A stretch of DNA of 64,000 nucleotides from a virus (Duplodnaviria; Heunggongvirae; Uroviricota; Caudoviricetes): IMG/VR virus record IMGVR_UViG_2909314774_000001; one strand, written 5' to 3'. The stretch's first letter is position 1, and each line of letters starts with the position of its first letter. The position numbers and the translations under genes are program-made. Under the pieces are notes generated by a model. The model made no database searches. It had not been told where the DNA came from and worked only from the letters and a program-made list of their open reading frames with translations. Shown in pieces: positions 2,594-56,000 of the stretch.

Positions 2594-3694
2594 TCACACT
2601 GCGCGGAATGCGATTTCGCCAGGTATTACTTCACCTTGCCAATACATTTGGGCAGCAACGCGATCTGCGAGGTCACGATAAATAGCCGTAAATTCGCTAT
2701 CTGGACGACTAATAACGGTTGGTGTTCCGTTATCCAGATCTTCACGAAGAGAGATATGAAGTGGCATTTGGCCTAACAACTGCGTGTTGTATTTCTCGGC
2801 CAGTTTCTGTGCGCCACCGGTGCCAAAAATTGGCTCGTGATGACCGCAGTTACTGCAAATATGCACACTCATGTTTTCGACGATACCCAGTACCGGCACT
2901 TCGACTTTTTCGAACATCACAATGCCTTTCTTCGCATCGATCAGCGCGATGTCTTGCGGCGTAGTTACCACAACCGCACCAGTTACAGGAATGTTCTGCG
3001 CCAGCGTCAACTGAATATCACCAGTGCCCGGCGGCATATCGAGAACGAGATAGTCCAGATCAGGCCATAGAGTTTCCTGCAACATCTGCATCAGCGCCTT
3101 GCTGGCCATCGGTCCACGCCACACCATTGCATTGTCGTCGGTGACCAGATAACCAATAGAGTTGGTTGCCAGGCCATGAGACATGATAGGTGCCATGTGA
3201 GTACCGTCAGGTGAGGTTGGACGTTGGTTTTCCGCGCCCAGCATGGTTGGAATTGATGGACCATAGATATCGGCATCCAAAATACCAACTTTCGCACCTT
3301 CAGCAGCCAACGCCAGTGCCAGGTTCACCGCCGTGGAGGATTTACCCACGCCGCCCTTGCCTGAGCTGACGGCGATAATGTTCTTAACGCCATTAATGCC
3401 TGGTTGGTTTTTGACGCGCTTAAGCGTGGCAATGTTGTACGACAGCTTCCAGTCAATAGCCTTTGCGCCAGTGATACGGAGCAGATCACCACTACATTGC
3501 TCTTTCAGGTCTTCAAAAGGCTTATTCCACACGAAAGGCATGATTAGTTCGACATGCAGTGTGTCATCCATCAACGCAACATGGTGTAACGCTTTAAGCG
3601 TAGTCAGGTTGTGTTTCAGGGTTGGGTGCTGAAAATTAGCCAGCGTACCGGCTACCATTGCTCTCAGGGCATCCGGCGATTTGGACTCGCTCAT
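2594..3694 (-). CDS. apbC: iron-sulfur cluster carrier ATPase ApbC/Mrp
   Basis: 366-aa translation near-identical to E. coli Mrp (SSGKGGVGKSS P-loop, CxxC motif); divergent from metG as in E. coli. Confidence 0.95.
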   Translation of the reverse strand: MSESKSPDALRAMVAGTLANFQHPTLKHNLTTLKALHHVALMDDTLHVELIMPFVWNKPFEDLKEQCSGDLLRITGAKAIDWKLSYNIATLKRVKNQPGINGVKNIIAVSSGKGGVGKSSTAVNLALALAAEGAKVGILDADIYGPSIPTMLGAENQRPTSPDGTHMAPIMSHGLATNSIGYLVTDDNAMVWRGPMASKALMQMLQETLWPDLDYLVLDMPPGTGDIQLTLAQNIPVTGAVVVTTPQDIALIDAKKGIVMFEKVEVPVLGIVENMSVHICSNCGHHEPIFGTGGAQKLAEKYNTQLLGQMPLHISLREDLDNGTPTVISRPDSEFTAIYRDLADRVAAQMYWQGEVIPGEIAFRAV

Positions 3695-3851
3695 CCCGTC
3701 TCCTTTATTTTAATTTGCGCAATTGTCGCCTTGTAGTGTACTCCAGCTACGACATTTAATCATTTATGAGAAATGCTGTTATCACATGGCAGACATAAGG
3801 CCATTTTGTTACTATCAAGCCCCTTTTCACTACAAAGAAGTAATGCCTACT

Positions 3852-5885
3852 ATGACCCAAGTCGCGAAGAAAATTCTGGTGACGTGCGCGCTGCCGTACG
3901 CTAACGGCTCAATCCACCTCGGCCATATGCTGGAGCACATCCAGGCTGATGTCTGGGTTCGTTACCAGCGAATGCGCGGCCACGAGGTTAATTTCATCTG
4001 TGCCGACGATGCCCACGGTACGCCGATCATGCTGAAAGCACAGCAGCTTGGTATCACACCGGAGCAGATGATTGGCGAAATGAGTCAGGAACACCAGACT
4101 GATTTCGCAGGCTTTAACATCAGCTATGACAACTATCACTCGACGCACAGCGAAGAGAACCGTCAGTTGTCTGAGCTTATCTATACTCGCCTGAAAGAGA
4201 ACGGTTTTATTAAAAACCGCACTATCTCTCAGTTGTACGACCCGGAAAAAGGCATGTTCCTGCCGGATCGTTTTGTAAAAGGCACCTGCCCGAAATGTAA
4301 AGCGCCAGATCAATACGGCGATAACTGTGAAGTCTGCGGCGCGACCTACAGCCCGACTGAACTGATTGAGCCGAAATCGGTAGTTTCTGGCGCTACGCCG
4401 GTAATGCGTGATTCTGAACACTTCTTCTTTGATCTGCCCTCTTTCAGCGAAATGTTGCAGGCATGGACCCGCAGCGGCGCGTTGCAGGAGCAGGTGGCGA
4501 ACAAAATGCAGGAATGGTTTGAATCCGGCCTGCAACAGTGGGATATCTCCCGCGATGCGCCTTACTTCGGTTTTGAAATTCCGAACGCGCCGGGCAAATA
4601 TTTCTACGTCTGGCTGGACGCGCCGATTGGCTACATGGGTTCCTTCAAGAATCTGTGCGACAAACGCGGCGATACCACCAGCTTCGATGAATACTGGAAG
4701 AAAGACTCCACCGCCGAGCTGTACCACTTCATCGGTAAAGATATTGTTTACTTCCACAGCCTGTTCTGGCCTGCCATGCTGGAAGGCAGCAACTTCCGCA
4801 AGCCGACCAACTTGTTTGTTCACGGCTATGTGACGGTGAACGGCGCGAAGATGTCCAAGTCTCGCGGCACCTTTATTAAAGCCAGCACCTGGCTGAATCA
4901 TTTTGACGCCGACAGCCTGCGTTACTACTACACTGCGAAACTCTCTTCGCGCATTGATGATATCGATCTCAACCTGGAGGATTTCGTTCAGCGCGTGAAT
5001 GCCGATATCGTGAACAAAGTGGTTAACCTGGCCTCCCGTAATGCAGGCTTTATCAACAAGCGTTTTGACGGCGTGCTGGCAAGCGAACTGGCTGACCCGC
5101 AACTGTACAAAACCTTTACTGATGCCGCTGAAGTGATTGGCGAAGCATGGGAAAGCCGCGAATTTGGTAAAGCTATCCGTGAAATCATGGCATTGGCTGA
5201 CCTGGCTAACCGCTATGTCGATGAACAGGCTCCGTGGGTGGTGGCGAAGCAGGAAGGACGCGATGCCGATCTGCAGGCGATTTGCTCTATGGGCATTAAC
5301 CTGTTCCGCGTGCTGATGACGTACCTGAAGCCGGTACTGCCGAAACTGACTGAACGTGCAGAAGCATTCCTGAATACAGAACTGACCTGGGATGGTATCC
5401 AGCAACCGCTGCTGGGCCATAAAGTGAATCCGTTCAAGGCACTGTATAACCGTATCGATATGAAGCAGGTTGAAGCACTGGTGGAAGCATCTAAAGAAGA
5501 AGTGAAAGCAGCTGCCACGCCAGTAACTGGCCCGCTGGCAGATGATCCGATTCAGGAAACCATCACCTTTGATGACTTCGCCAAAGTTGACCTGCGCGTG
5601 GCGCTGATTGAAAACGCAGAGTTTGTAGAAGGTTCTGACAAACTGCTTCGCCTGACGCTGGATCTCGGTGGTGAAAAGCGTAATGTCTTCTCAGGCATCC
5701 GTTCCGCTTATCCAGATCCACAGGCACTGATTGGTCGTCACACCATTATGGTGGCTAACCTGGCACCACGTAAAATGCGCTTCGGTATCTCTGAAGGCAT
5801 GGTGATGGCTGCTGGCCCTGGCGGGAAAGATATCTTCCTGTTAAGCCCGGATGTCGGTGCTAAACCTGGCCACCAGGTTAAGTAA
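3852..5885 (+). CDS. metG: methionyl-tRNA synthetase
   Basis: translation from [26 protein letters not shown] matches E. coli MetG almost residue for residue (HIGH and KMSKS motifs); the ORF-track start at 3723 is an upstream in-frame extension. Confidence 0.97.
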
Positions 5886-14909: not shown

Positions 14910-15434
14910 TCAAAAAGGCAAAATTCGTTCAACCCAATCGAACAAAACAACTATTTTTCTACCGTTCTCGACACGTAGTGTAACCTGACAAGCATCTGCG
15001 CCTGCTGACACCCCCTCAATTTCACGGCCATCCGCCATGTACACCCTTATAGATTTGTTTGCTTTGTAGGCTTGGTTGCAAATTGCAAAAAAATCGCGGC
15101 GTGATGGCCGATTATCGACATAATCAGGGTGAACTGTTAGTCGACCTTTGAAATCGTGAGCGATACTGTCAACCACACCTGATTCAATTGTACTAATGCG
15201 TTCAAGTGGGAGCCTTATACGATTTTCTTTGTCAAAAGGGGCTGGGCAAAGGTCAACTTTGTTACGAGATGGCATGAGGCCATAAACGTACATGCAAAAC
15301 GCCTGGCCATCTTCGAGAGTGACCCTTACAGGAATTTGTTCTCTGCGCCAGAACATCAGTAGTTTTTCAACGTTAGTGTAATCTCGCGGCCAGAGTTCAG
15401 CTTGGATACCGTAGGTAATATCTTTGGTTGTCAT
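14910..15434 (-). CDS. hypothetical protein (about 175 aa from the internal Met MTTKDITYG)
   Basis: ORF-track frame; start chosen to abut the upstream lipoprotein gene. Confidence 0.45.
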   Translation of the reverse strand: MTTKDITYGIQAELWPRDYTNVEKLLMFWRREQIPVRVTLEDGQAFCMYVYGLMPSRNKVDLCPAPFDKENRIRLPLERISTIESGVVDSIAHDFKGRLTVHPDYVDNRPSRRDFFAICNQAYKANKSIRVYMADGREIEGVSAGADACQVTLRVENGRKIVVLFDWVERILPF

Positions 15435-15438
15435 GTCA

Positions 15439-15861
15439 TCACAGAGTTGTTGGCAGAATGTCGATGTCACCAGAATTGCTGGTGAACACCCTGAATGCTT
15501 TTGTGTCTCCATTCTTCAGAGTCGTTTCTCGCTCTTGACGAGCGGGGTTTAGAGCACATAAACCTGCACCTTCAAGAGATGCACCCACAATTAATTCTCC
15601 GGCATTTAAATGGAAAGTCGCTTTTTCGCCTGTAGCCAGTTTTGCGACAGTTTCGCCGTTGATGAAAATGGAAGCATCACATCCAGCTCCTACAAAACCT
15701 GTGTCTCTCATTACCACCAACGTAGCTGGCGCTGCGCTTTGATACTTGAACACTTTGGCCTGCGGTGCTGGTTTGGCGTCATGGATTGATATTGGGCGTG
15801 ATTGGCACGCGGCAAGCATCAACACTGGTAACGTTAGTAGAGGGAGAAGCGAGTATTTCAT
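15439..15861 (-). CDS. putative lipoprotein (lipobox LMLAAC after a signal peptide)
   Basis: MKYSLLPLLTLPVLMLAACQS: leader plus Cys lipobox. Confidence 0.6.
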   Translation of the reverse strand: MKYSLLPLLTLPVLMLAACQSRPISIHDAKPAPQAKVFKYQSAAPATLVVMRDTGFVGAGCDASIFINGETVAKLATGEKATFHLNAGELIVGASLEGAGLCALNPARQERETTLKNGDTKAFRVFTSNSGDIDILPTTL

Positions 15862-16210: not shown

Positions 16211-17770
16211 CTAATCTCGTTTCAGAACTCCAAAATCGAATGCTCCATCAATAGGTAATACACCTTCTGCAAAGCCAGGTGTGGTGTCGATGATGTGTTT
16301 TCGCTCATAAGAGTGAGACAACAGGTATTTGTTGCTAATGTCAATGAAATCAGTGATAAAACACACGTTTGCCTGATTTTTTTTGGCTCGTAAGCCACGA
16401 CCGACACGCTGTCTCATTTCAACTTCTGCTTTCCCACCACCAGCAAGAATGACCGCGCCCACGCTTGGCACATCAACACCGACATCCAGAATAGTCGAGC
16501 CTATTAAAACATCTATTTCGCCAGACGCTAAACTGTTCAGCTTTGCTTGCCTTGTCGCCTGGTTCGATTCCCCATAAATGAAGTCAACTCTAAGGCCGGA
16601 CTCCTTCATCATCTCCATCAGGATTTGCCCGTGGCGTTTAAGACGAACCAGAGTCATACAATTGAGAGAATGTTGCTTATAGAGCAATGCTTCGCGCACA
16701 ATGGCCTCGTTACGTCCCAAATTATACACGATCCCCAACTGATAAGCCTTTTGGTAGGCAGTGCTCATACCTACTCTAAAATTGAGGTGTTTGTTGGCAA
16801 GTTCTGCCTTGATTCTGACCTCGTCCGGTTTGTAGGCAACTTTATGATAAAGGAAGTACGGCTTTGCCAGAATGCCTCGATCAATCAGGTACTTTTCTGT
16901 GACTTTAATTTCAATTCGCCCGGCCACCGCCATCAGGCGCATGTTGGCTTCCGTCGAATCCTTCATGAACGGCGTGGCCGTAAGCGCCAGACGATAGTCT
17001 GCGTTCACACATAATCTGGCAATGTCATAGAAATTAGAGCCTGAAGACTCATGCGCTTCTTCCAGAATAAGCAGAGACACACTTGAAAGGAAGCGTTTCA
17101 CCAACTCCCGACGTTTGAGGTGGTAGCTCTTTTTATCTGGTGTTGCATCGCGTGGTGGTTCTTCGAGGAAACTTGCAAGAGTTTGAACTGTAGCGACGTT
17201 GATATGTCGTGATACCTGGAACTCACCCGAGCCAATGACTCCAACCTTTTGGTCTTTTAACCACGGTTCGCCATTTTCGGCGCGGTAGTCGATGGATCTC
17301 TGGAAGTTTTCGGCCATTTGAAACATCAGAACAGAGCGGGTTGTTAAAAATAATGTCATTCGACCGATACGTGCAGCTGCTTTGCAGGCAACGTTAGATT
17401 TCCCGCCACCAGTAGCGATCTGCGCAATCATCATTCCCTCTCGAACCAGTGTTTCCACAGTCTGATCCTGATACGCATAATCAGGATTGTATGGGAATGG
17501 GTTAACCGCCGGATTTGGTTTACCAAGCGCCGGGGCTTTGTCTTTGCGGATATGAACACATTTGATGCCCGCCTTGTTCAAGTTCGCCGCTACAGGCTTG
17601 GCAAAGCCAGCAGGGAACGAGTTTTTACTCCAGTTGAACATCGTGCTTGTGCCCTTCCAGTCGCCAGTCTCGACTTCGTAGCTCAACATTTGCTGCACCA
17701 GTTGCTTTACCTTGTCATCTGCGCCAGAAATAAGCGCATTTACTGCGTTAGATACAATCCGAACAGTCAT
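16211..17770 (-). CDS. superfamily-2 DNA/RNA helicase (DEAH-like)
   Basis: motif I ATGGGKS, motif II LEEAHE, motif III LTATP, motif VI VGRGLR. Confidence 0.75.
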   Translation of the reverse strand: MTVRIVSNAVNALISGADDKVKQLVQQMLSYEVETGDWKGTSTMFNWSKNSFPAGFAKPVAANLNKAGIKCVHIRKDKAPALGKPNPAVNPFPYNPDYAYQDQTVETLVREGMMIAQIATGGGKSNVACKAAARIGRMTLFLTTRSVLMFQMAENFQRSIDYRAENGEPWLKDQKVGVIGSGEFQVSRHINVATVQTLASFLEEPPRDATPDKKSYHLKRRELVKRFLSSVSLLILEEAHESSGSNFYDIARLCVNADYRLALTATPFMKDSTEANMRLMAVAGRIEIKVTEKYLIDRGILAKPYFLYHKVAYKPDEVRIKAELANKHLNFRVGMSTAYQKAYQLGIVYNLGRNEAIVREALLYKQHSLNCMTLVRLKRHGQILMEMMKESGLRVDFIYGESNQATRQAKLNSLASGEIDVLIGSTILDVGVDVPSVGAVILAGGGKAEVEMRQRVGRGLRAKKNQANVCFITDFIDISNKYLLSHSYERKHIIDTTPGFAEGVLPIDGAFDFGVLKRD

Positions 17771-17852
17771 AAACCTCTTTCCTTAGTGCCTTTTGTATGT
17801 TATTTGGCTATTATAATAAGTAAGTGATTACTTAGTGGATTGTAGCAATAAA

Positions 17853-18533
17853 ATGGATGTAAAAATCACGATTTTGCAGGTTGATGTTGCCAACCTTCGC
17901 CCGAATACCTGGAACACCAATTCGGTTGGTGCGCAGAATTTTGAAAAACTGAAAGGTTCTATCGAAAAATTGGGCTTTTTTAAGCCAATTTTGGCTCGTG
18001 AACTTGAAGATGGATTTTTTGAAATCCTCGGCGGCGAACATCGCTGGCGTGCTGCTATTGAGCAAGGAATTTCAACGGTTCCGGTGCTTTCTGTGGGCAA
18101 AATTAGCGATGTCGTAGCTAAACAGATGTCACTGGTGGACAACGAGCGATACGGTGAAGACGACCAAATCGCATTGCAACGCTTCATTGAAGAAATTCAG
18201 TCAGAACTTGACTATCAACTGTCTGAAATCGCCCCGTATGACGACGAAATCTCGATGGTTTTAGCAAAAGAGGCGGCAATCGACCTTGAAGCACTGGAGG
18301 CGTTGTCTCGTGGTAGTGATGAGCCTGTCGATACCGACAAACGAGAGAAAACCGAACGTGTGGGGGCGGAACATCAGACCATGCGCTTCAAAGTAACTTT
18401 CGATGCGTCAGATCGTGTTGCAGAAACCATAAAAAACATCATCAAAGAGCAGGCTATTAACACCGGTAATGAAATGGAGAACGCTGGTGAGGCTCTGGTG
18501 TGGCTGGTCGACTACTACAAGGAGCGTATGTAA
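17853..18533 (+). CDS. ParB/Srx-fold (ParB N-terminal-like) protein 1
   Basis: GGEHRWRAA motif resembling the ParB GERRWRA box; start at MDVKITIL preferred over the track start. Confidence 0.6.
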   Translation: MDVKITILQVDVANLRPNTWNTNSVGAQNFEKLKGSIEKLGFFKPILARELEDGFFEILGGEHRWRAAIEQGISTVPVLSVGKISDVVAKQMSLVDNERYGEDDQIALQRFIEEIQSELDYQLSEIAPYDDEISMVLAKEAAIDLEALEALSRGSDEPVDTDKREKTERVGAEHQTMRFKVTFDASDRVAETIKNIIKEQAINTGNEMENAGEALVWLVDYYKERM

Positions 18534-19201
18534 TGACCAAAAAGTTTGAAATCGTATATCGCGACCCGGCAGATCTTATTCCCTATGAGATGAATGCCAA
18601 AAAGCATGATGAACAGCAGATCCGAGATCTGGCCGCAGCCATTAAAAAGCGCGGATTTGACCAGCCAATTACGGTCGATAAGAACGACGTAATTATTACT
18701 GGCCACGGCCGCCGTGAGGCTGCAATTTTTGCTGGACTTGAGCGCGTGCCGGTTATTGTTCGCGATGATCTGAGTGATGACGAGGTACGTGCAAAGCGCC
18801 TTGAAGATAACCGACTTGCCAGCATTGATTACGATGCAATTAAGCTACAGAAAGAGCTTGAGTCGCTTGTTCTGGACGATATCGAGGTTTTCGGCTTCGA
18901 AGAGCGTGAGTTGAACGTTCTCGTTGGCAGTATGACAGAAGAAATGGACACCGACTCGCTAGTTATCGATCTTGGCGAAGAAACTAAACGACAGAAGGAT
19001 GAACACACCGAGATCAGTCGTGAAGTTGCAGCGGAAGAAGTACGTGTTGTCGACGTATTGGGCTTTAAAACGCTCCCTGCTGGCTCTGCCATTGTTGTTG
19101 GTGATTTGCTTGCCCATATGGAAGAAATGACGGGAGAAAGCGGGGTAGACGCATTTGTGGCATATGCGGAGAAGATCTCTTCCGGGGAGATGGCTGCATG
19201 A
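18533..19201 (+). CDS. ParB/Srx-fold (ParB N-terminal-like) protein 2
   Basis: ITGHGRREAA motif; start overlaps the previous stop (TAATG). Confidence 0.6.
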   Translation: MTKKFEIVYRDPADLIPYEMNAKKHDEQQIRDLAAAIKKRGFDQPITVDKNDVIITGHGRREAAIFAGLERVPVIVRDDLSDDEVRAKRLEDNRLASIDYDAIKLQKELESLVLDDIEVFGFEERELNVLVGSMTEEMDTDSLVIDLGEETKRQKDEHTEISREVAAEEVRVVDVLGFKTLPAGSAIVVGDLLAHMEEMTGESGVDAFVAYAEKISSGEMAA

Positions 19202-19863
19202 GCAAATACATCATCAACGTATCGTTTCAGACACGCGTAAATAAAACCACGCGCACGTTGGAAATCGCTGAGTCGTTCGGGCTTGGCCTGGACGAAAAAG
19301 AGTGGACGCTTTACGACAATCTGGAGCTGGAAGTGAAGCAGGGCGATGTGGTGTACATCACCGGCCAATCCGGTTCCGGCAAATCCGTTGTGCTGCGCGA
19401 GTTGCAACGACAGATGAAGGATGAAGGGCTGTCTGTAGCCTCCATCGATGATTTTACCTTCGATAATGAGGTTAACGTCATCGATCAGTTGGGCAAAACG
19501 ACCAGTGATGCGCTTGGGTTGTTATCTATGGCTGGTCTGAACGATGCATATCTGTTTGTTCGCAAGCCTTCTGAAATGTCAGACGGCCAGAAATATCGTC
19601 TCAAGATTGCCAAACTGATTGAGTCAGGCGCTAAAGTATGGGCTGCTGACGAGTTCGGCGCTGTTCTCGACCGTGTAACCGCTCAGGTTGTGGCGTCTAA
19701 CCTCCAGCGTGCCGCTCGAAAGGTTGGTGCGACGGTAATGGTGGCGACGACTCACGAAGACCTGAAGAACGCGCTGCGCCCTGATATGCAGATCACCAAG
19801 CACTACAAAGAACGCGTGAAGGTGGAATATCACAATGGTAGTCATGATGAGGTCCATTCATGA
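19198..19863 (+). CDS. soluble ABC-type ATPase
   Basis: Walker A GQSGSGKS, signature-like MSDGQ, Walker B VWAADEF, H-loop TTHE; translationally coupled to neighbours. Confidence 0.65.
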   Translation: MSKYIINVSFQTRVNKTTRTLEIAESFGLGLDEKEWTLYDNLELEVKQGDVVYITGQSGSGKSVVLRELQRQMKDEGLSVASIDDFTFDNEVNVIDQLGKTTSDALGLLSMAGLNDAYLFVRKPSEMSDGQKYRLKIAKLIESGAKVWAADEFGAVLDRVTAQVVASNLQRAARKVGATVMVATTHEDLKNALRPDMQITKHYKERVKVEYHNGSHDEVHS

Positions 19864-20750
19864 CGGACATCATCATTAAACGCTACCGCCCTGAAGAGTT
19901 TCCGCGTCATCTGGACTTTCTGGAGCGAATGACTGTTACAAAGGGAACTGTAGAGGACTGGCACGCTCTTAAGTCGCTTCACTACAAAACAGACGGCAAA
20001 CCTTTCGCGCCAACTTACTATCGCTGCGAACTTGATGACCGTCTGGTGGGCGTCGTGGTTATGGCTTACCCGAAACTACTGTTGGCACCTCGCCACCGCA
20101 TGTTTCCTAAGTTGAAACCAACCACTAATACCACCGTGGCTAACCAGTACTGGGGTCGGTACGTGAATAACAACTTTGCGGTGATCAGTCGCTCAGTTGT
20201 GGATACTCAGTATCGTGGCGTAGGCGTCTCTTATCGAATGATTAACCTGGTTAGCAGGATGCATGACCGGCCAATCATTGAGATCCAGTCCTCGATGAGC
20301 AAATACAATCCCTTCGCCATGAAAGCAGGGTTTAAGTTCATCCGCCCTGAGCGACCGAAGAGCTATGAAAGTGCACTGCGTGTATTCCAGCGCCATTTCC
20401 GTTCCGACCCGGGTGATAACGAGGCGATCGTCAAAGAGTTGTTCGCAATGAGCGAGTCTCGTCGTCGCCGTGCACTGCGTGATCTGGTAGCGGACTACCA
20501 CAAGAACAGTTCCCTGGCAAAAGCTGGGCGGAATCGTGGCACGACGATTCAGGACATTGCCGACAGTCTGGTGGACGAGGCCAGCATTGTGAAGCTGCTC
20601 AAGGACATTCACACCCTGAGCTTTACGTCTCCGTTGTATGGTGTGTACCGAAACCCTGACTTTGGTCGTCGGCTGCCTGACACGCTGCCACTGCTGGCAT
20701 TCGACAAACAACCTTTGGATAAACCGTTAGAAATTGCTTTACCGGCATAA
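19860..20750 (+). CDS. GNAT-like acyltransferase-fold protein with C-terminal extension
   Basis: motif-A-like VDTQYRGVGVSYRM and NPFAMKAGFKFI. Confidence 0.45.
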   Translation: MTDIIIKRYRPEEFPRHLDFLERMTVTKGTVEDWHALKSLHYKTDGKPFAPTYYRCELDDRLVGVVVMAYPKLLLAPRHRMFPKLKPTTNTTVANQYWGRYVNNNFAVISRSVVDTQYRGVGVSYRMINLVSRMHDRPIIEIQSSMSKYNPFAMKAGFKFIRPERPKSYESALRVFQRHFRSDPGDNEAIVKELFAMSESRRRRALRDLVADYHKNSSLAKAGRNRGTTIQDIADSLVDEASIVKLLKDIHTLSFTSPLYGVYRNPDFGRRLPDTLPLLAFDKQPLDKPLEIALPA

Positions 20751-20759
20751 GGATTTGCC

Positions 20760-21026
20760 ATGACGTTAACCGATAAACAAAAGGACATCATCAAAACGCT
20801 CAATCTCGGTTATGAGCGAGGTCATCTACTTGACCTGGACGAATTGCTTGAAGTTTTGCCGTACAAGACAACCAAGCAAAGTATCCAGTTCTCAATTCGC
20901 GCTCTGATAAAAAAGGGGCTGGTGGAGAAAGGGCATACGCGCCAACGCAGTGACAATCGCTATCACCGCCGAACTCTTGGGTTAACCACTTTAGGTCGAG
21001 CCAAAGCGAAGTTACTGGTGATGTAA
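20760..21026 (+). CDS. small basic protein, possible winged-helix DNA-binding
   Basis: 88-aa ORF, Lys/Arg-rich C-terminus. Confidence 0.4.
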   Translation: MTLTDKQKDIIKTLNLGYERGHLLDLDELLEVLPYKTTKQSIQFSIRALIKKGLVEKGHTRQRSDNRYHRRTLGLTTLGRAKAKLLVM

Positions 21027-21048
21027 TCGGTCTGGGAGCTTATTTAAA

Positions 21049-21106
21049 GACCTGCTTCTGTATATATAAATAATAAGTAACTTATTAAATATATACAGAA
21101 GCAGGC
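21049..21106. repeat. large near-perfect palindrome (CCTGCTTCTGTATATAT ... ATATATACAGAAGCAGG) with AATAAGTAACTTATT core
   Basis: 17-bp arms are exact reverse complements; a diverged second copy lies at 55941-56000. Confidence 0.8.
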
Positions 21107-21222
21107 TTAATAAGACATGCCCAGACCTAATTAAACACCCCAGAAAACAAGTTGGTTAGCAGATTCAGTAAACAAGTTGTTTTAGAGCGCATGGACGCGC
21201 TCTGTGTGTTTTAGAGGGATCT

Positions 21223-21855
21223 ATGACGGTCGAAAAAGACGAGGTAAAAACTCGCCTGACACCAGCGGAGTGGGCCGAAGCTGAAGCCAAATGGACGTCA
21301 GGCGAATATACACTCTCAAAGCTGGAGGAAGAGTACGGCATTCGTCGTGAAACACTCTCCAGACATTTCAAAAAGCGAGGATTAGAGAAAGGCGCGGACT
21401 CTGTTGGGAAGATGGTTCGTGAGTCTCTTAAATCTGACGCAGAGCTTCGCGCTAAAGCCCGTGCGGAAAAGATAGAAGAACGTCGTACACGTTATGACGG
21501 CTGGGCGTATGCGTTGGGGCAGATGGTGATGGTCGAAGTCACTACGGCCAAACGTGAGGGTAAGCCTTTAGGGGCGATTGAGGATTCTCTCAAGAGCTTA
21601 CAGAGAGCCAGTAATACCCTTGCAAAATGCTTTGAAGTTTCGTCCAAAGCATTGGGCATGGATCATGCGGAAAATGACGAGGAAGAAATTCCGAACCTGG
21701 TATTTGGTGAGCTTACGCCTTCCCAGGTGGCGAAATTACGTCAGGAAGACGACGAGCCTGAAATCATCGATGACGAATTGCTTGAGACGTTGGAAGAAGA
21801 AGCTCTAAGCGAATTTGATGCGACAGATGATGGAAGTGAAGGGGAGGACGAATAA
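21223..21855 (+). CDS. terminase small subunit (putative)
   Basis: position directly upstream of the large terminase, HTH-like N-terminus, acidic C-terminus; two class-A palindromes upstream. Confidence 0.55.
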   Translation: MTVEKDEVKTRLTPAEWAEAEAKWTSGEYTLSKLEEEYGIRRETLSRHFKKRGLEKGADSVGKMVRESLKSDAELRAKARAEKIEERRTRYDGWAYALGQMVMVEVTTAKREGKPLGAIEDSLKSLQRASNTLAKCFEVSSKALGMDHAENDEEEIPNLVFGELTPSQVAKLRQEDDEPEIIDDELLETLEEEALSEFDATDDGSEGEDE

Positions 21856-23111
21856 TGGCAATCCCGTCCTCGCTCAGTCTTGTGCAACTGCATTCTGGAC
21901 AGATGAAAGTCTTCCAGTCTCCGCATCGATTTAAAGTTGTTTGTGCTGGTCGACGCTGGGGAAAATCCCGGTTGTCGATCTCCACTATTATTCGTGCGGC
22001 GGCAAAGGAAAAAAAGCAAAGAGTCTGGTATGTCGCTCCTACTTACCAGATGGCTCGCCAGATTTTGTGGGACGATCTACAGGAAGTTCTGCCTCGTAAG
22101 TGGGTTAGGAAAAAGAACGACACCACGATGACAATCGTGTTGAAGAACGGTTCGGAGATCGCCCTCAAAGGTGCTGATAAGCCTGACACTCTGCGCGGCG
22201 TAGCGTTGCATTTTGTAGTGCTTGATGAATTTCAGGATATGAAGGCTGACACCTGGTACAAGGTGTTACGACCTACTCTTTCATCGACACGCGGCGGTGC
22301 ACTGATCATTGGTACGCCAAAAGGCTTCTCGGAATTTCACAAACTGTGGACTATAGGCCAGAACGTAGAGCTGCAAAGAAAGGGACAGTGGAAGAGCTGG
22401 CAGTTTGTAACTGCCGATTCTCCGTTTGTACCTACGGCGGAAATTGAAGCTGCTAAGAACGATATGGACCCGAAATCGTTCGCTCAGGAGTACCTGGCGA
22501 GCTTTGAGAACATGTCCGGGCGCGTTTACTACCCGTTCGATCGTAACGTGCATGTAAAACCGCTTCAGTTCAACCCTCGGTTGCCTATATGGGTAGGGCA
22601 GGACTTCAACATTGACCCGATGTCTTCAGTAATTTTGCAACCTCAGCCAAATGGTGAGCTATGGGCAATTGATGAATTGGTGCTCTTTTCCTCTAACACG
22701 GCAGAGGTTTGTGATGAGCTTGAGAGACGCTTCTGGCGCTGGAAATCACAGATAACGGTATTTCCAGATCCGGCAGGTGCTTATCGCCAACATGCTCGCG
22801 GGGAGTCTGACGTCGACATATTCAAAGAGAAGGGATTCTTACGTGTCGATTATTCGAAAAAGCACCCGCCAATTGCGGATCGTGTTAATGCTGTTAACCG
22901 AATGCTGATGACCGCATCTGGAGATATCCGGCTGTATATCGATCCGAAGTGCAAGCATTTGATTGATTCACTGGAAAAAGTCATCTACAAGCCTGGAACA
23001 CGAGATATGGATAAGACAGGTGGCATTGAGCATAGTGCAGACGCATTGGGCTATCCAGTACATCGTAGGTATCCAGTCAAAAACCGTGTTATTCTTGGTG
23101 GTTCTCGATAG
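21855..23111 (+). CDS. terminase large subunit
   Basis: Walker A CAGRRWGKS, Walker B VVLDEFQD, nuclease-domain-like C-terminal half. Confidence 0.85.
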   Translation: MAIPSSLSLVQLHSGQMKVFQSPHRFKVVCAGRRWGKSRLSISTIIRAAAKEKKQRVWYVAPTYQMARQILWDDLQEVLPRKWVRKKNDTTMTIVLKNGSEIALKGADKPDTLRGVALHFVVLDEFQDMKADTWYKVLRPTLSSTRGGALIIGTPKGFSEFHKLWTIGQNVELQRKGQWKSWQFVTADSPFVPTAEIEAAKNDMDPKSFAQEYLASFENMSGRVYYPFDRNVHVKPLQFNPRLPIWVGQDFNIDPMSSVILQPQPNGELWAIDELVLFSSNTAEVCDELERRFWRWKSQITVFPDPAGAYRQHARGESDVDIFKEKGFLRVDYSKKHPPIADRVNAVNRMLMTASGDIRLYIDPKCKHLIDSLEKVIYKPGTRDMDKTGGIEHSADALGYPVHRRYPVKNRVILGGSR

Positions 23112-53146: not shown

Positions 53147-53815
53147 ATGACCAAGATCTTTGTGGTTGGCGGCACAAAGGGCGGGCCTGGCAAATCCACC
53201 GTTGCCCAGCAAATTGCCGTTTGCCTGAAAGTCAAAAAGAAGAAGAAGGTTTATATTACCGATATAGATATTCAGCGCACGACAACGAGCTGGTGTGAAG
53301 ACCGTCGACAGAACGAAGACCTTGAGCTGATTCCTTTTGCATACGTTCAGGATGACATCATTAAGCACCTAAAATCGCTTCAGGGTAGAGCTGAGTTTGT
53401 AGTGGTAGATGCCGGTGGCTTTGACTCCGAAATTCAGCGACAAGCGATGCTGATGGCTGACGTTATCATTATCCCGCTTCGTCCTAAGCGTCGTGATTTG
53501 AAATCTCTGCGTGACATTGATCCTATTATCGACAATGTTCGTAATGTAAACGATAAAGTGAAGGTCCGCGCGGTCATGAACCAGTGCCCGGCTTTGCCAT
53601 CACAAGTGTCTCGCATTCTGGCGGCTAAAGAGATTGTCGAGACGTTTGGCATCGAGTCTGCGCCAGTCAATCTATATAACCGCAACGTCTATGATGATGC
53701 GGAAGAGTCTGGTCGTTCTATCTTTGAAATGACCGGTAGCGAGCGCGACAAAAAGGCGGAAGCCGAGTTTGAAGAATTTGTAGATTATCTGTTGAGTCTG
53801 GAGGAAGAAGAATAA
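53147..53815 (+). CDS. ParA-type partition ATPase (small type Ib, ParF-like)
   Basis: deviant Walker A GGTKGGPGKST; 222 aa; class-A palindrome 53096-53112 upstream. Confidence 0.8.
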   Translation: MTKIFVVGGTKGGPGKSTVAQQIAVCLKVKKKKKVYITDIDIQRTTTSWCEDRRQNEDLELIPFAYVQDDIIKHLKSLQGRAEFVVVDAGGFDSEIQRQAMLMADVIIIPLRPKRRDLKSLRDIDPIIDNVRNVNDKVKVRAVMNQCPALPSQVSRILAAKEIVETFGIESAPVNLYNRNVYDDAEESGRSIFEMTGSERDKKAEAEFEEFVDYLLSLEEEE

Positions 53816-54174
53816 TGTCCATGAAAATGGGTGACCTAGCAAAGCGCAAAGAGCCTGATGCACCGGCTAAGAACACAACTCCTTTGCGCCAACCAGTCAG
53901 ACCACAGGGACGCCCGACTCGTGGCAAAGAGAAAATTAAAAGCCGCACAATGTCACTGGAGGACGAATACTTCGAACTGCTGGAGATGATGAAGTTCATC
54001 CCTCGCTTCGAGAAATTCACCCGCTCTGATGTGATTCGTGCTGCTATTTTCCATCTTGCGGAGAAGACACCGCAGGAAATCGAGGACATCGTGAAACTTA
54101 ACGAGGCGATCACAGCTGCCGATGTCACGATGCGTACCGATGAAATTAAACGCGAGTTGATGAAGAAAGGGTGA
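53815..54174 (+). CDS. ParG-like small DNA-binding partner (putative RHH)
   Basis: 119-aa ORF translationally coupled to parA-like gene; basic N-terminal tail. Confidence 0.5.
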   Translation: MSMKMGDLAKRKEPDAPAKNTTPLRQPVRPQGRPTRGKEKIKSRTMSLEDEYFELLEMMKFIPRFEKFTRSDVIRAAIFHLAEKTPQEIEDIVKLNEAITAADVTMRTDEIKRELMKKG

Positions 54175-54225: not shown

Positions 54226-55932
54226 ATGGAATCGATAGAAGTATTTTTAAAAAATTTTTTGGACTCAGATCATCGGGTTGCTGTCATAAAAGGAAATTGG
54301 GGAGTAGGTAAAACGCATTATTGGAATAGCTTTTATACTAAACATTCTAAAAAATTAGATTTTAATGCATATTCATATGTTTCTTTGTTTGGAATAAATT
54401 CTATTGGAGACATTAAAAAAGCTCTTTATCATTGTGCCACACCAATTAATGAAAAGAAATATAAAGAACTGATTTTATCTGAAACGGATCGAACTATGAT
54501 TCGTTATAGAAATGGGTTTTGGGGATGGTTGAAATACAACTCCTTGTCAAAATTTTTAATACATTTTGGAAAGAACGATTTTTTTGGGTTCAAAACTGAT
54601 AATCTGCTGTCATCTCTTGAGTATAAATTTGTTAATAATTATTTGGTTTGCATTGATGATATTGAACGAAAAGGTAGTGCGCTAGAAATTAAAGAGATTA
54701 TGGGGGTAATTGATGAGTTGGCAAGAAGAAAAAATTGCAAGGTTGTTCTAATATTAAATGAAGATAACTTACATGAAGAAACTGCACAACAACAGTTTTT
54801 AGAGTATAGAGAAAAAATAATTGATGTGGAAATAAAATACGATCCCACGCCTGAGAAAAACTTAAGAAAAGTTTTTTATGAGACTGACCCTGATTTTCTT
54901 TTGTTAAAAAACCTAGTAAATGATTTAAACATCAAAAACATTAGAATATTAAATAAAATAAAATCATCTCTAGTTATATTTAGAGATGTGCTAAAGTTAG
55001 CAGAGGATAAGGTTAGAGAAAGTTTTATTAATAGATTGGTCTTATTTTCAGTGGTTTACTATTTTGGTGTTCCTAGCGTTGATTATGCTTCATTTAAGGA
55101 GTCAATCAAAAATATACATGCATTCGACTATATGTTAGATGATAAAGATGAAAAGGAAGAAGTTAACTCTGTATATTCATTTGTTAATAGCCTTGATGTT
55201 ATTTATGAACGAGCAGAAAGTGCTTTCGATGATGATATAGATTTTTACCTTAAGAACGGTTATGTTTCTTCTGAAAGCAATATTCTAAATATAATAAAAG
55301 AAAAAAATGAACAATATAGAGATAATAGGGTTTTATGTGAGGTTTATAAAATTTGGGATGTTTTTAGAAACTCTTTTAAAGATAATGAATCAGAGTTTAT
55401 TTTTCAAATTGAGCGCGTAATTAACGATAGTCTGTTGCGTATACCAATTGGACAGTTCGTAGGTTTAATAAATGTCCTAATTAAATTGGATAGAGATTGT
55501 AATAATATTATAGAGGCATATGCAGATGCTTTTGTTAATAAAGAAAATGCGTATGCTACATTTAATTCTTTGCGAGTAGAGATCTTCGGAAATGAAGAAT
55601 TAGGTTTCAGAATTGAAAAAAAATTGAAAGATAGAAATCCAGATGACTATAACTTAGATAAAATTATAAAAAAAATAGCTGGTGGAAGATTTAACCATAG
55701 TGATGTGAATATTCTTAACAGTTTTTCTAAAGATGATTACGTAAACTGGATATTATCCTGTGATCAGGATGCTTTGAATTTAGTAGAAGAGACTATGCTC
55801 AAGTTCAAGGGTATGCAACACCCGACAGACGAACAGAAGAGCATCACTGATAAAGCAATAGAAGCTTTGGAGGAAGTTGCTTCAAAATCAACACTTAATA
55901 AGCTGCGTGTTAATAAAATACTCAATCATTAA
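54226..55932 (+). CDS. KAP-family P-loop NTPase
   Basis: Walker A GNWGVGKTHYW (the G.WG.GK(S/T) form typical of KAP NTPases), Walker B LVCIDDIER; strongly AT-rich gene. Confidence 0.75.
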   Translation: MESIEVFLKNFLDSDHRVAVIKGNWGVGKTHYWNSFYTKHSKKLDFNAYSYVSLFGINSIGDIKKALYHCATPINEKKYKELILSETDRTMIRYRNGFWGWLKYNSLSKFLIHFGKNDFFGFKTDNLLSSLEYKFVNNYLVCIDDIERKGSALEIKEIMGVIDELARRKNCKVVLILNEDNLHEETAQQQFLEYREKIIDVEIKYDPTPEKNLRKVFYETDPDFLLLKNLVNDLNIKNIRILNKIKSSLVIFRDVLKLAEDKVRESFINRLVLFSVVYYFGVPSVDYASFKESIKNIHAFDYMLDDKDEKEEVNSVYSFVNSLDVIYERAESAFDDDIDFYLKNGYVSSESNILNIIKEKNEQYRDNRVLCEVYKIWDVFRNSFKDNESEFIFQIERVINDSLLRIPIGQFVGLINVLIKLDRDCNNIIEAYADAFVNKENAYATFNSLRVEIFGNEELGFRIEKKLKDRNPDDYNLDKIIKKIAGGRFNHSDVNILNSFSKDDYVNWILSCDQDALNLVEETMLKFKGMQHPTDEQKSITDKAIEALEEVASKSTLNKLRVNKILNH

Positions 55933-55940
55933 TAGATTAT

Positions 55941-56000
55941 GACCTGCTTCCGTATGTATTTAATAAGTTACTTATTATTTGTATATACAGAAGCAGGTCT
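55941..56000. repeat. second copy of the large palindrome (GACCTGCTTCcGTATgTA ... AATAAGTTACTTATT ... TATATACAGAAGCAGGTC)
   Basis: shares arms and core with 21049-21106; followed by TTTTAAAG. Confidence 0.75.

Follow-up and report, generated by a model that had tools for sequence, protein, structure and literature searches.

The closest described relatives of the genes studied here belong to the COG2401/MK0520-type family, named 'ABC-type ATPase fused to a predicted acetyltransferase domain'. The genes form an operon at positions 17,853 to 21,026 of a 64,000-nucleotide stretch of tailed-virus DNA (IMG/VR record IMGVR_UViG_2909314774_000001; the whole stretch is referred to as the window), which was identified as an SSU5-like phage-plasmid. 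They encode two ParB-like proteins (ParB1 and ParB2), a soluble ABC-type ATPase, a GNAT-fold acyltransferase and a small basic protein. In the SSU5 lineage the operon represents a virus cassette that is old and widespread; in most lineages the ATPase and the GNAT are fused, and their usual partner is an NTP-binding protein of the ParB/Srx fold. COG2401 proteins and the window pair agree in both catalytic domains and in the motifs of these; in the window, however, the domains are split over overlapping, translationally coupled genes, alongside genes for two ParB paralogues and a winged-helix-like small protein. In a 2021 review from the Aravind laboratory, which cites Iyer et al. (2013), a GNAT together with an ABC ATPase was predicted to acylate a DNA nucleobase, with phage pT24 as the example (PMC7824862). 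A homologue of the cassette family is present in pT24. No experimental study of the cassette was found in the literature searched.

Parts of the cassette can also be compared with other described enzymes. TmcA/NAT10 combines an ATPase domain with a GNAT and makes N4-acetylcytidine in RNA, and the logic of NTP hydrolysis plus base acetylation by a GNAT is shared; the ATPase of TmcA is, however, of the helicase type and not ABC, its substrate is tRNA, and no relationship in sequence was detected. A possible tie to TmcA/NAT10 is seen in Streptococcus pyogenes prophage 315.4, in which an ASCH-domain protein is encoded near the cassette genes; one member of this family, YqfB of E. coli, is an amidohydrolase that acts on N4-acylcytosines (PMC6972931). 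Mom of phage Mu (PDB 8bv8), a GNAT-fold DNA adenine methylcarbamoylase, has the fold in common with the window protein but no sequence-level relationship to it. Mom works without an ATPase or ParB partner, whereas the window GNAT retains the CoA-type motif R-x-x-G-x-G/S and contains a helical insert of ∼90 residues. In the DpdA/DpdB 7-deazaguanine system a ParB/Srx-fold NTPase likewise assists a base-changing enzyme, DpdB being a ParB-like ATPase with a role in DNA base modification (PMC12839542); the chemistry, however, is transglycosylation instead of acyl transfer, and no TGT-family enzyme was present among the Pfam matches of the five products and their immediate neighbors. Finally, the ParB domain of certain phage DNA methyltransferases (phrog_498, PDLC03229) is of the same subtype as ParB2 and also often lies at the start of the record beside the terminase, but in the window there is no methyltransferase domain and the partners are a separately encoded ABC ATPase and GNAT.

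The ATPase and GNAT genes of the window are a split form of the fused COG2401 family. A profile of the GNAT-like protein identified 892 representatives, many of which were ∼480 amino acids long and matched in their C-terminal half, and Pfam ABC_tran was found in the N-terminal half of all longer or fused proteins that were checked (10/10). When the window ATPase was compared with the archaeal fused proteins, phmmer E-values down to 1e-65 were obtained. The Walker A motif, the signature SDGQ, the Walker B motif DEF and the H-loop (TTH) of the ABC domain are conserved from phages to the archaeal fusions, and the R-x-x-G-x-G/S CoA-binding-type motif of the GNAT is conserved through the family. 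A single fused polypeptide is not encoded here: the two genes overlap by 4 nt, and relatives carry up to three small genes between them. The COG2401 name is already attached to the GNAT-like gene in IMG and in phage annotations. PDB searches turned up generic ABC domains but no other solved structure of a relative. The sequence-only reading of this DNA had not recognized the combination as a described system, which has to be revised, as all five products fall in PHROG families, the central pair corresponds to COG2401 in split form and acylation of a DNA nucleobase by such a pair has already been predicted (PMC7824862). The ABC motifs that it had quoted are present in the ATPase, GQSGSGKS at residue 56, MSDGQ at 127, VWAADEF at 147 and TTHE at 184, as are those of the ParB-like proteins, GGEHRWRAA at residue 60 of ParB1 and ITGHGRREAA at residue 55 of ParB2.

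ParB1 and ParB2 are paralogues with 33% identity over 116 residues. ParB1 could be aligned to the structures of Spo0J, ParB and Noc, with its GGEHRWRAA facing their AGERRYRAA, and is a relative of the CTP-binding ParB/Noc proteins with a ParB/Srx N-terminal domain. Loops conserved across the clade are GG[EQH]HR and DN..YG in ParB1 and an invariant GHGR in ParB2. The AlphaFold model of ParB1 reached a pLDDT of only 38.7, because the homologues used were all at least 86% identical. ParB2 matched phrog_498 'DNA methyltransferase' (E 1e-31) and PADLOC MTase_II (PDLC03229, 3e-17), but these matches span just its first ∼140–155 residues, and otherwise no methyltransferase family in Pfam, PHROG or PADLOC matched any of the five products. 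By tblastn, 288 phage records were found to contain a ParB2 homologue; many of these homologues carry a methylase annotation, and many are the first gene, beside the terminase. ParB2 belongs to the ParB subtype that is found fused to DNA methyltransferases in phages and together with ABC-GNAT in other lineages.

In prophage 315.4 a ParB gene lies ahead of an ABC ATPase gene, and its product shares 54% identity with the ParB part of a ParB-DUF4417 fusion from Streptococcus phage MM1. In MM1 this ParB_N-DUF4417 fusion (ORF28, positions 3989–5083 of locus L256; DUF4417 E 2.5e-70) and a 248-amino-acid open reading frame (ORF) fill the slot before TerS that is occupied by ParB-ABC in 315.4. The large terminases (TerL) of 315.4 and MM1 are only 23% identical, and the identity is limited to the C-terminal half. 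Therefore, this ParB subtype pairs with interchangeable enzymes upstream of terminases of different families. The DUF4417 protein may be another ParB-delivered enzyme, and when the partner of the ParB is a methyltransferase the target is certainly DNA.

The order of the operon is maintained far beyond its closest relatives. A first scan of IMG/VR with an alignment of the GNAT gave close relatives only. Homologues of the GNAT-like protein with 41–55% identity sit on contigs of ∼100–145 kb, and three such contigs have exactly the order divergent helicase, ParB, ParB, ABC, none to three small genes, GNAT, small protein, gap, TerS-like, TerL and portal. Isolated phages of Pseudomonas (Nickievirus), Rhizobium (RHEph10-related) and Stenotrophomonas, which are virulent and not plasmids, share this order. 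Conservation of the gene neighborhood in related phages had been named in the sequence-only reading as a check, and since the order is kept in relatives in which the GNAT-like protein is just 41–46% identical, the arrangement is not due to chance. The divergent helicase is also kept in the relatives L084–L086 and L168–L170 and is a conserved syntenic neighbor of the cassette. The small genes between ABC and GNAT in relatives (Rhizobium phage RHph_N1_15, L170 5043–5345; L085 7961–8999) include those for a Tad2-like Thoeris anti-defence domain (E 1e-23), a Phage_gp49_66 protein and a RyR-domain protein. The Tad2-like anti-Thoeris gene lies inside the operon in Rhizobium phages, and the operon thus accepts counter-defence inserts. 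One clade relative has a dATP/dGTP pyrophosphohydrolase (PF04447) among its early genes (L086 573–998, L087 189–614), a family linked to phages with 2-aminoadenine in place of adenine.

More widely, the fused ABC-GNAT protein was found beside terminase genes in phages of Pseudomonadota, Actinomycetota and Bacillota and in proviruses of Bathyarchaeia, and 84 phage records matched it by tblastn. In Gordonia phage Mariokart, gp1 is ParB-like, gp2 is ABC-GNAT, gp3 is a formyltransferase (Formyl_trans_N) and gp4 is the terminase, followed by the portal. Prophage 315.4 has the order ParB, ABC ATPase, an 89-amino-acid ORF, ASCH-domain protein, TerS-like, TerL and portal, and in three Bacillota prophages ABC-GNAT is followed by Amidoligase_2, a small gene, a T7-type TerL and the portal. 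In the Mu-like Burkholderia phage phiE255, ABC-GNAT and a formyltransferase (Formyl_trans_N) are located after the tail-fiber genes, with neither ParB nor terminase nearby, and the Tenacibaculum jumbo phage pT24 has a split copy near a helicase and not near the terminase.

A genome scan with the fused family gave 80 loci, nearly all from Bathyarchaeia and other archaea and often with several copies per genome. The archaeal loci are tailed-virus gene sets with HK97 gp10-like, YQBQ-like baseplate and helix-turn-helix proteins and TerL. ParB, ABC and GNAT are fused in one protein in four archaeal loci and in one further viral contig. Several metagenome-assembled genomes of Bathyarchaeia (among loci L089–L167) carry at least three ABC-GNAT loci. 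At some Bathyarchaeia loci tail genes and ABC-GNAT occur with no adjoining TerL and with host-type genes immediately downstream, so that ABC-GNAT would be the last gene at the end of the provirus. Odd architectures were observed in four ABC-GNAT proteins (P0177, P0204, P0165 and P0155), namely an upstream fusion to family-B DNA polymerase, an ABC ATPase interrupted by a LAGLIDADG intein and a TFIIB repeat at the C terminus.

The function that we put forward, as a tentative reading, is a ParB-targeted, ATP-driven and acyl-CoA-dependent modification of DNA before packaging. The ParB proteins, perhaps together with the small winged-helix protein, would bind phage DNA and recruit a complex of ATPase and GNAT. 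The ABC ATPase would dimerize on ATP, and hydrolysis would engage or expose the target, after which the GNAT would move an acyl group from acyl-CoA onto a DNA base. This would occur on replicated phage DNA prior to packaging, so that the packaged genome would be marked against host restriction.

The sequences directly show which domains are present, that their catalytic motifs are conserved, how the split and fused forms relate, that ParB-ABC-GNAT fusions exist and that bacterial and archaeal viruses keep the cassette beside terminase genes. We infer DNA as the substrate, and with it the acyl group, the base, the timing and the protective effect, from several features of the cassette and its relatives. 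The ParB subtype is linked to methyltransferases, and ParB is fused to ABC-GNAT. Mom is a DNA-modifying enzyme of the GNAT fold, and Mom-family proteins are among the nearest viral structural neighbors of the window GNAT. The gene of phiE255 holds a mom-like position, since mom in Mu is likewise placed after the tail-fiber genes. Genes for formyltransferase, amidoligase and ASCH proteins travel with the core, and the cassette is independent of any one TerL family, adjoining at least three large-terminase types (Terminase_6N, T7-type TerL and others). DNA modification is further suggested by the described base-modification role of the ParB-like ATPase DpdB (PMC12839542) and by the prior prediction given in the review (PMC7824862, citing Iyer et al., 2013). 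The Tad2-like insert in the operons of Rhizobium phages would place such a modification in a counter-defence setting. Among the functions listed by the sequence-only reading, a DNA modification or protection module is the best supported.

In a more far-reaching version, which we regard as doubtful, the cassette would place a new acyl modification, such as N4-acyl-deoxycytidine or N6-acyl-deoxyadenosine, on viral DNA, with formyl or aminoacyl elaboration in some lineages, and ParB would act as an NTP-gated clamp that delivers the ABC-powered GNAT along the genome just before packaging, the machine being common to bacterial and archaeal tailed viruses. If DNA modification is correct, many phage lineages and archaeal viruses would modify bases by a new enzymatic route, ParB-targeted and using acyl-CoA and ATP, the computational prediction of which dates from 2013, and the occurrence in an E. 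coli phage-plasmid makes this prediction directly testable in a tractable model.

Several observations weigh against DNA modification. Structural scores of the GNAT protein to Mom (8bv8) were not above those to many N-terminal protein or small-molecule acetyltransferases, and neither Mom nor another GNAT family was matched at a curated sequence threshold in Pfam, NCBIfam and PDB profile searches. No report of a modified base in SSU5-like phages was found in the literature searched. The genome has thymidylate synthase and dihydrofolate reductase of the ordinary type, and the annotation that was read contained no pathway for a non-canonical base, although none was specifically sought. The whole clade of ∼110-kb siphoviruses holds the cassette as a conserved core gene set, whereas anti-restriction genes are more often variable. 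Lastly, a same-strand TerL was located within 2 kb of ABC-GNAT in 32 of the 43 archaeal loci with full flanks (74%), usually immediately upstream, and the link to TerL was also seen in ∼49 of 80 IMG/VR loci and in several bacterial lineages.

This adjacency would be explained equally well by a direct role in packaging, which we consider unlikely. Here the ParB proteins would bind near the genome end or a pac or cos site and would, with ABC-GNAT, prepare or mark the DNA or hand it to TerS and TerL, or a packaging or head protein would be acylated; the purpose would be packaging efficiency and not protection. Consistent with this, the order ParB, ABC-GNAT, (TerS), TerL, portal recurs in Gordonia, Streptococcus, Bacillota and SSU5-clade phages, the cassette is part of the core syntenic set in both temperate and virulent members, ParB2-type genes are often the first of a phage record, and in many IMG/VR contigs the gene lies no more than ∼1 kb from the contig end. 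The adjoining TerLs are, however, from different families, which argues against a specific physical partnership, the copies of phiE255 and pT24 lie away from the terminase, and several archaeal loci have ABC-GNAT without a TerL nearby. Moreover, in the window a strong hairpin is found between the cassette and the terminase operon, and in other phages the same slot is filled by ParB-methyltransferase or ParB-DUF4417, which points to a slot for exchangeable enzymes. To our knowledge, no GNAT or transporter-type ABC ATPase has a role in packaging, which also counts against this alternative. For the packaging accessory considered in the sequence-only reading, the position beside the terminase is very widely conserved, but across different TerL families; if true, a terminase helper made of ParB, ABC and GNAT would be new biology. 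A similarly low probability is given to the acylation of something other than DNA, such as a host or phage protein (RNA polymerase, a nucleoid or a defence protein), RNA, aminoacyl-tRNA or a small molecule, which would aid host takeover or counter-defence; the ParB proteins would then be regulators that depend on NTP, or nucleases. The conserved CoA-binding motif of the GNAT and its equal similarity to protein acetyltransferases fit this possibility, as do the Tad2-like anti-defence gene within the operon of some relatives and the amidoligase and formyltransferase partners, which would also suit peptide or metabolite chemistry. A precedent is the phage GNAT Rac, which according to the review acetylates host RNA polymerase (PMC7824862). 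What this alternative leaves unexplained is the recurrent fusion or adjacency to a methyltransferase-linked ParB domain, the neighborhood of packaging genes and the Mom-like viral structural neighbors.

Database names suggest two further functions. RefSeq (PGAP) and phage records label the ParB genes as partition proteins ('ParB/RepB/Spo0J family partition protein'), and the duplicated ParB genes of the Acinetobacter AB phage-plasmids, a related group, were listed under partition (PMC7969092). ParB1 and ParB2 might accordingly serve plasmid maintenance or act as KorB-like spreading repressors, with the ATPase and GNAT as passengers. ParB1 resembles the CTPases of ParABS and KorB in its N-terminal domain and in a loop (GEHR) similar to GERR, and it aligns with the CTP-dependent ParB, Spo0J and Noc. 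Nevertheless, we judge this function very improbable. With TIGR00180 (parB_part) both ParB proteins scored 43 bits, far below the cut-off of 58.45, so that the threshold for partition is not reached; no ParA gene is adjacent, and the separate ParA-like gene, which has a small partner of its own, is located 32 kb away; some archaeal loci encode a ParB fused to ABC-GNAT; and the sole repeated palindrome that was found is terminator-like, at operon ends, with about three copies per genome. The cassette is also conserved in virulent phages without a plasmid state, and because the carriers in Nickievirus, Rhizobium and Stenotrophomonas are not plasmids, what is conserved cannot be a role in plasmid partition. 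The statement of the sequence-only reading that this is not a canonical partition system, made on account of the distant ParA-like gene, therefore holds, and is strengthened by the virulent phages. Many phage records annotate the genes as ABC transporter subunits, and Pfam ABC_tran as well as many NCBIfam transporter ATPase models match, the latter all far below their curated cut-offs. The chance that the genes encode a transporter is practically nil, and this function was rejected: no membrane protein or hydrophobic segment is encoded in the operon, and the 'second ABC subunit' has a GNAT fold. None of the five products contains a transmembrane-like stretch (highest Kyte-Doolittle mean over 19 residues, 1.46) and the flanking genes encode a helicase and the terminase, in line with the earlier assignment of the ABC protein as soluble and without a transporter partner. 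The labels 'partition protein ParB' and 'ABC transporter' feed wrong calls of partition and transport in surveys of phage-plasmids. Membership of a defence system was also rejected, since PADLOC gave only weak generic ATPase matches and matches to the N-terminal domain of ParB-methyltransferases.

The operon is followed by a long palindrome that folds as RNA with -51 kcal/mol (z -12). It belongs to a palindrome family with the core arms CTGCTTCTGTATATAT and about three copies per genome; further copies follow the KAP-NTPase gene in the window and a 'putative DNA methylase' gene in PhiR41_1 (L259 13436–13486). Every copy starts 4–25 nt past the stop codon of the final gene in a run of + strand genes, and distant relatives (L170, L084–L086) have unrelated palindromes at the same site before TerS. 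The palindromes are probably operon-end hairpins or terminators, and a protein-binding or cruciform role is also conceivable; read as operon-end hairpins, they indicate that the cassette is probably a transcription unit of its own, separate from the terminase operon. That the ParB proteins use the palindrome as a parS, pac or cos site was considered unlikely in view of the terminator-like placement after last stop codons, the unrelated palindromes of distant relatives and the lack of compensatory changes in the Klebsiella copy. The records of Cyrano and SSU5 end within the palindrome, which was not taken as a physical terminus; the record of Nican01 opens at TerL by convention.

All five ORFs of the operon are intact, which agrees with the proposal of a five-gene operon in the sequence-only reading, and they are closely packed: ParB1 and ParB2 overlap by 1 nt (TAATG), ParB2 and ABC by 4 nt (ATGA) and ABC and GNAT by 4 nt, while the gene of the small basic protein follows after a 9-nt gap with an AAGGA ribosome-binding site. 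A divergent promoter region had been proposed in front of the operon. The divergent intergenic region could be confirmed, but in a sigma-70 scan no promoter or consensus was found. Downstream, the TerS-like and TerL genes are followed by the portal gene. The features of the window are listed in Table 1.

Table 1. Positions, strands and properties of the operon genes, their flanks and other features of the window
Feature	Position	Strand	Properties
apbC/mrp	2594–3694	-	host-type gene
metG	3723–5885	+	methionyl-tRNA synthetase
FljA-like protein	14910–15512	-	'repressor of phase-1 flagellin' domain; Pfam Flag1_repress E 2.5e-84
UvsW-like superfamily-2 helicase	16211–17770	-	Pfam ResIII, DEAD, Helicase_C
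Divergent intergenic region	17771–17852		82 bp; presumed promoter region of the operon
ParB1	17853–18533	+	226 aa; Pfam ParB_N E 3e-13; phrog_723 E 1e-78
ParB2	18533–19201	+	222 aa; Pfam ParB_N 1e-8; phrog_930 1e-112; phrog_498 1e-31
Soluble ABC-type ATPase	19198–19863	+	221 aa; Pfam ABC_tran 6e-13
GNAT-fold acyltransferase	19860–20750	+	296 aa; ∼90-residue helical insert; motif-A-like YRGVGVSYR at nt 20211–20237
Small basic protein	20760–21026	+	88 aa; pI 10.2; phrog_900 2e-45
Near-perfect palindrome	21030–21127		∼100 nt; starts 4 nt past the last stop codon of the operon
TerS-like DNA-binding protein	21223–21855	+	phrog_867
Large terminase TerL	21855–23111	+	phrog_2/10250; Pfam Terminase_6N
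ParA-like ATPase	53147–53815		∼32 kb from the cassette; with small, putatively ParG-like partner, 53147–54174
KAP-family P-loop NTPase	54226–55932	+	directly after the ParA-like pair
Palindrome, further copy	55941–55999		after the KAP-NTPase gene

The small basic protein is probably a winged helix-turn-helix DNA binder, as suggested by weak matches to Sta1/Lrs14 (E 0.003–0.004), LexA_DNA_bind (0.07) and the C-terminal region of PADLOC CARF3 (5e-5). Its gene directly follows the GNAT gene throughout the clade. By hhalign no homology was found between this protein and the products of the small genes beside archaeal ABC-GNAT.

Over the 3.3-kb operon region, identity to the window is 99.1% for Escherichia phage Cyrano, 98.5% for PhiR41_1, 85% for Salmonella phage SSU5 and ∼81% for Klebsiella phage-plasmids. 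Cyrano and PhiR41_1 are phage isolates and close relatives, and the host listed for PhiR41_1 is E. coli K-12 MG1655. Operon DNA is carried by 247 of 5,426 complete E. coli genomes (∼4.6%) and is plasmid-borne in every case. The apbC/mrp and metG genes on the phage-plasmid lie in a stretch with 90–95% identity to most E. coli records and represent a captured host pair that is typical of ∼110-kb E. coli plasmids. A FljA-like protein is also encoded on the phage-plasmid. The segment with the KAP NTPase gene has a GC content of 0.31, compared to ∼0.47 elsewhere, and looks acquired, possibly for defence.

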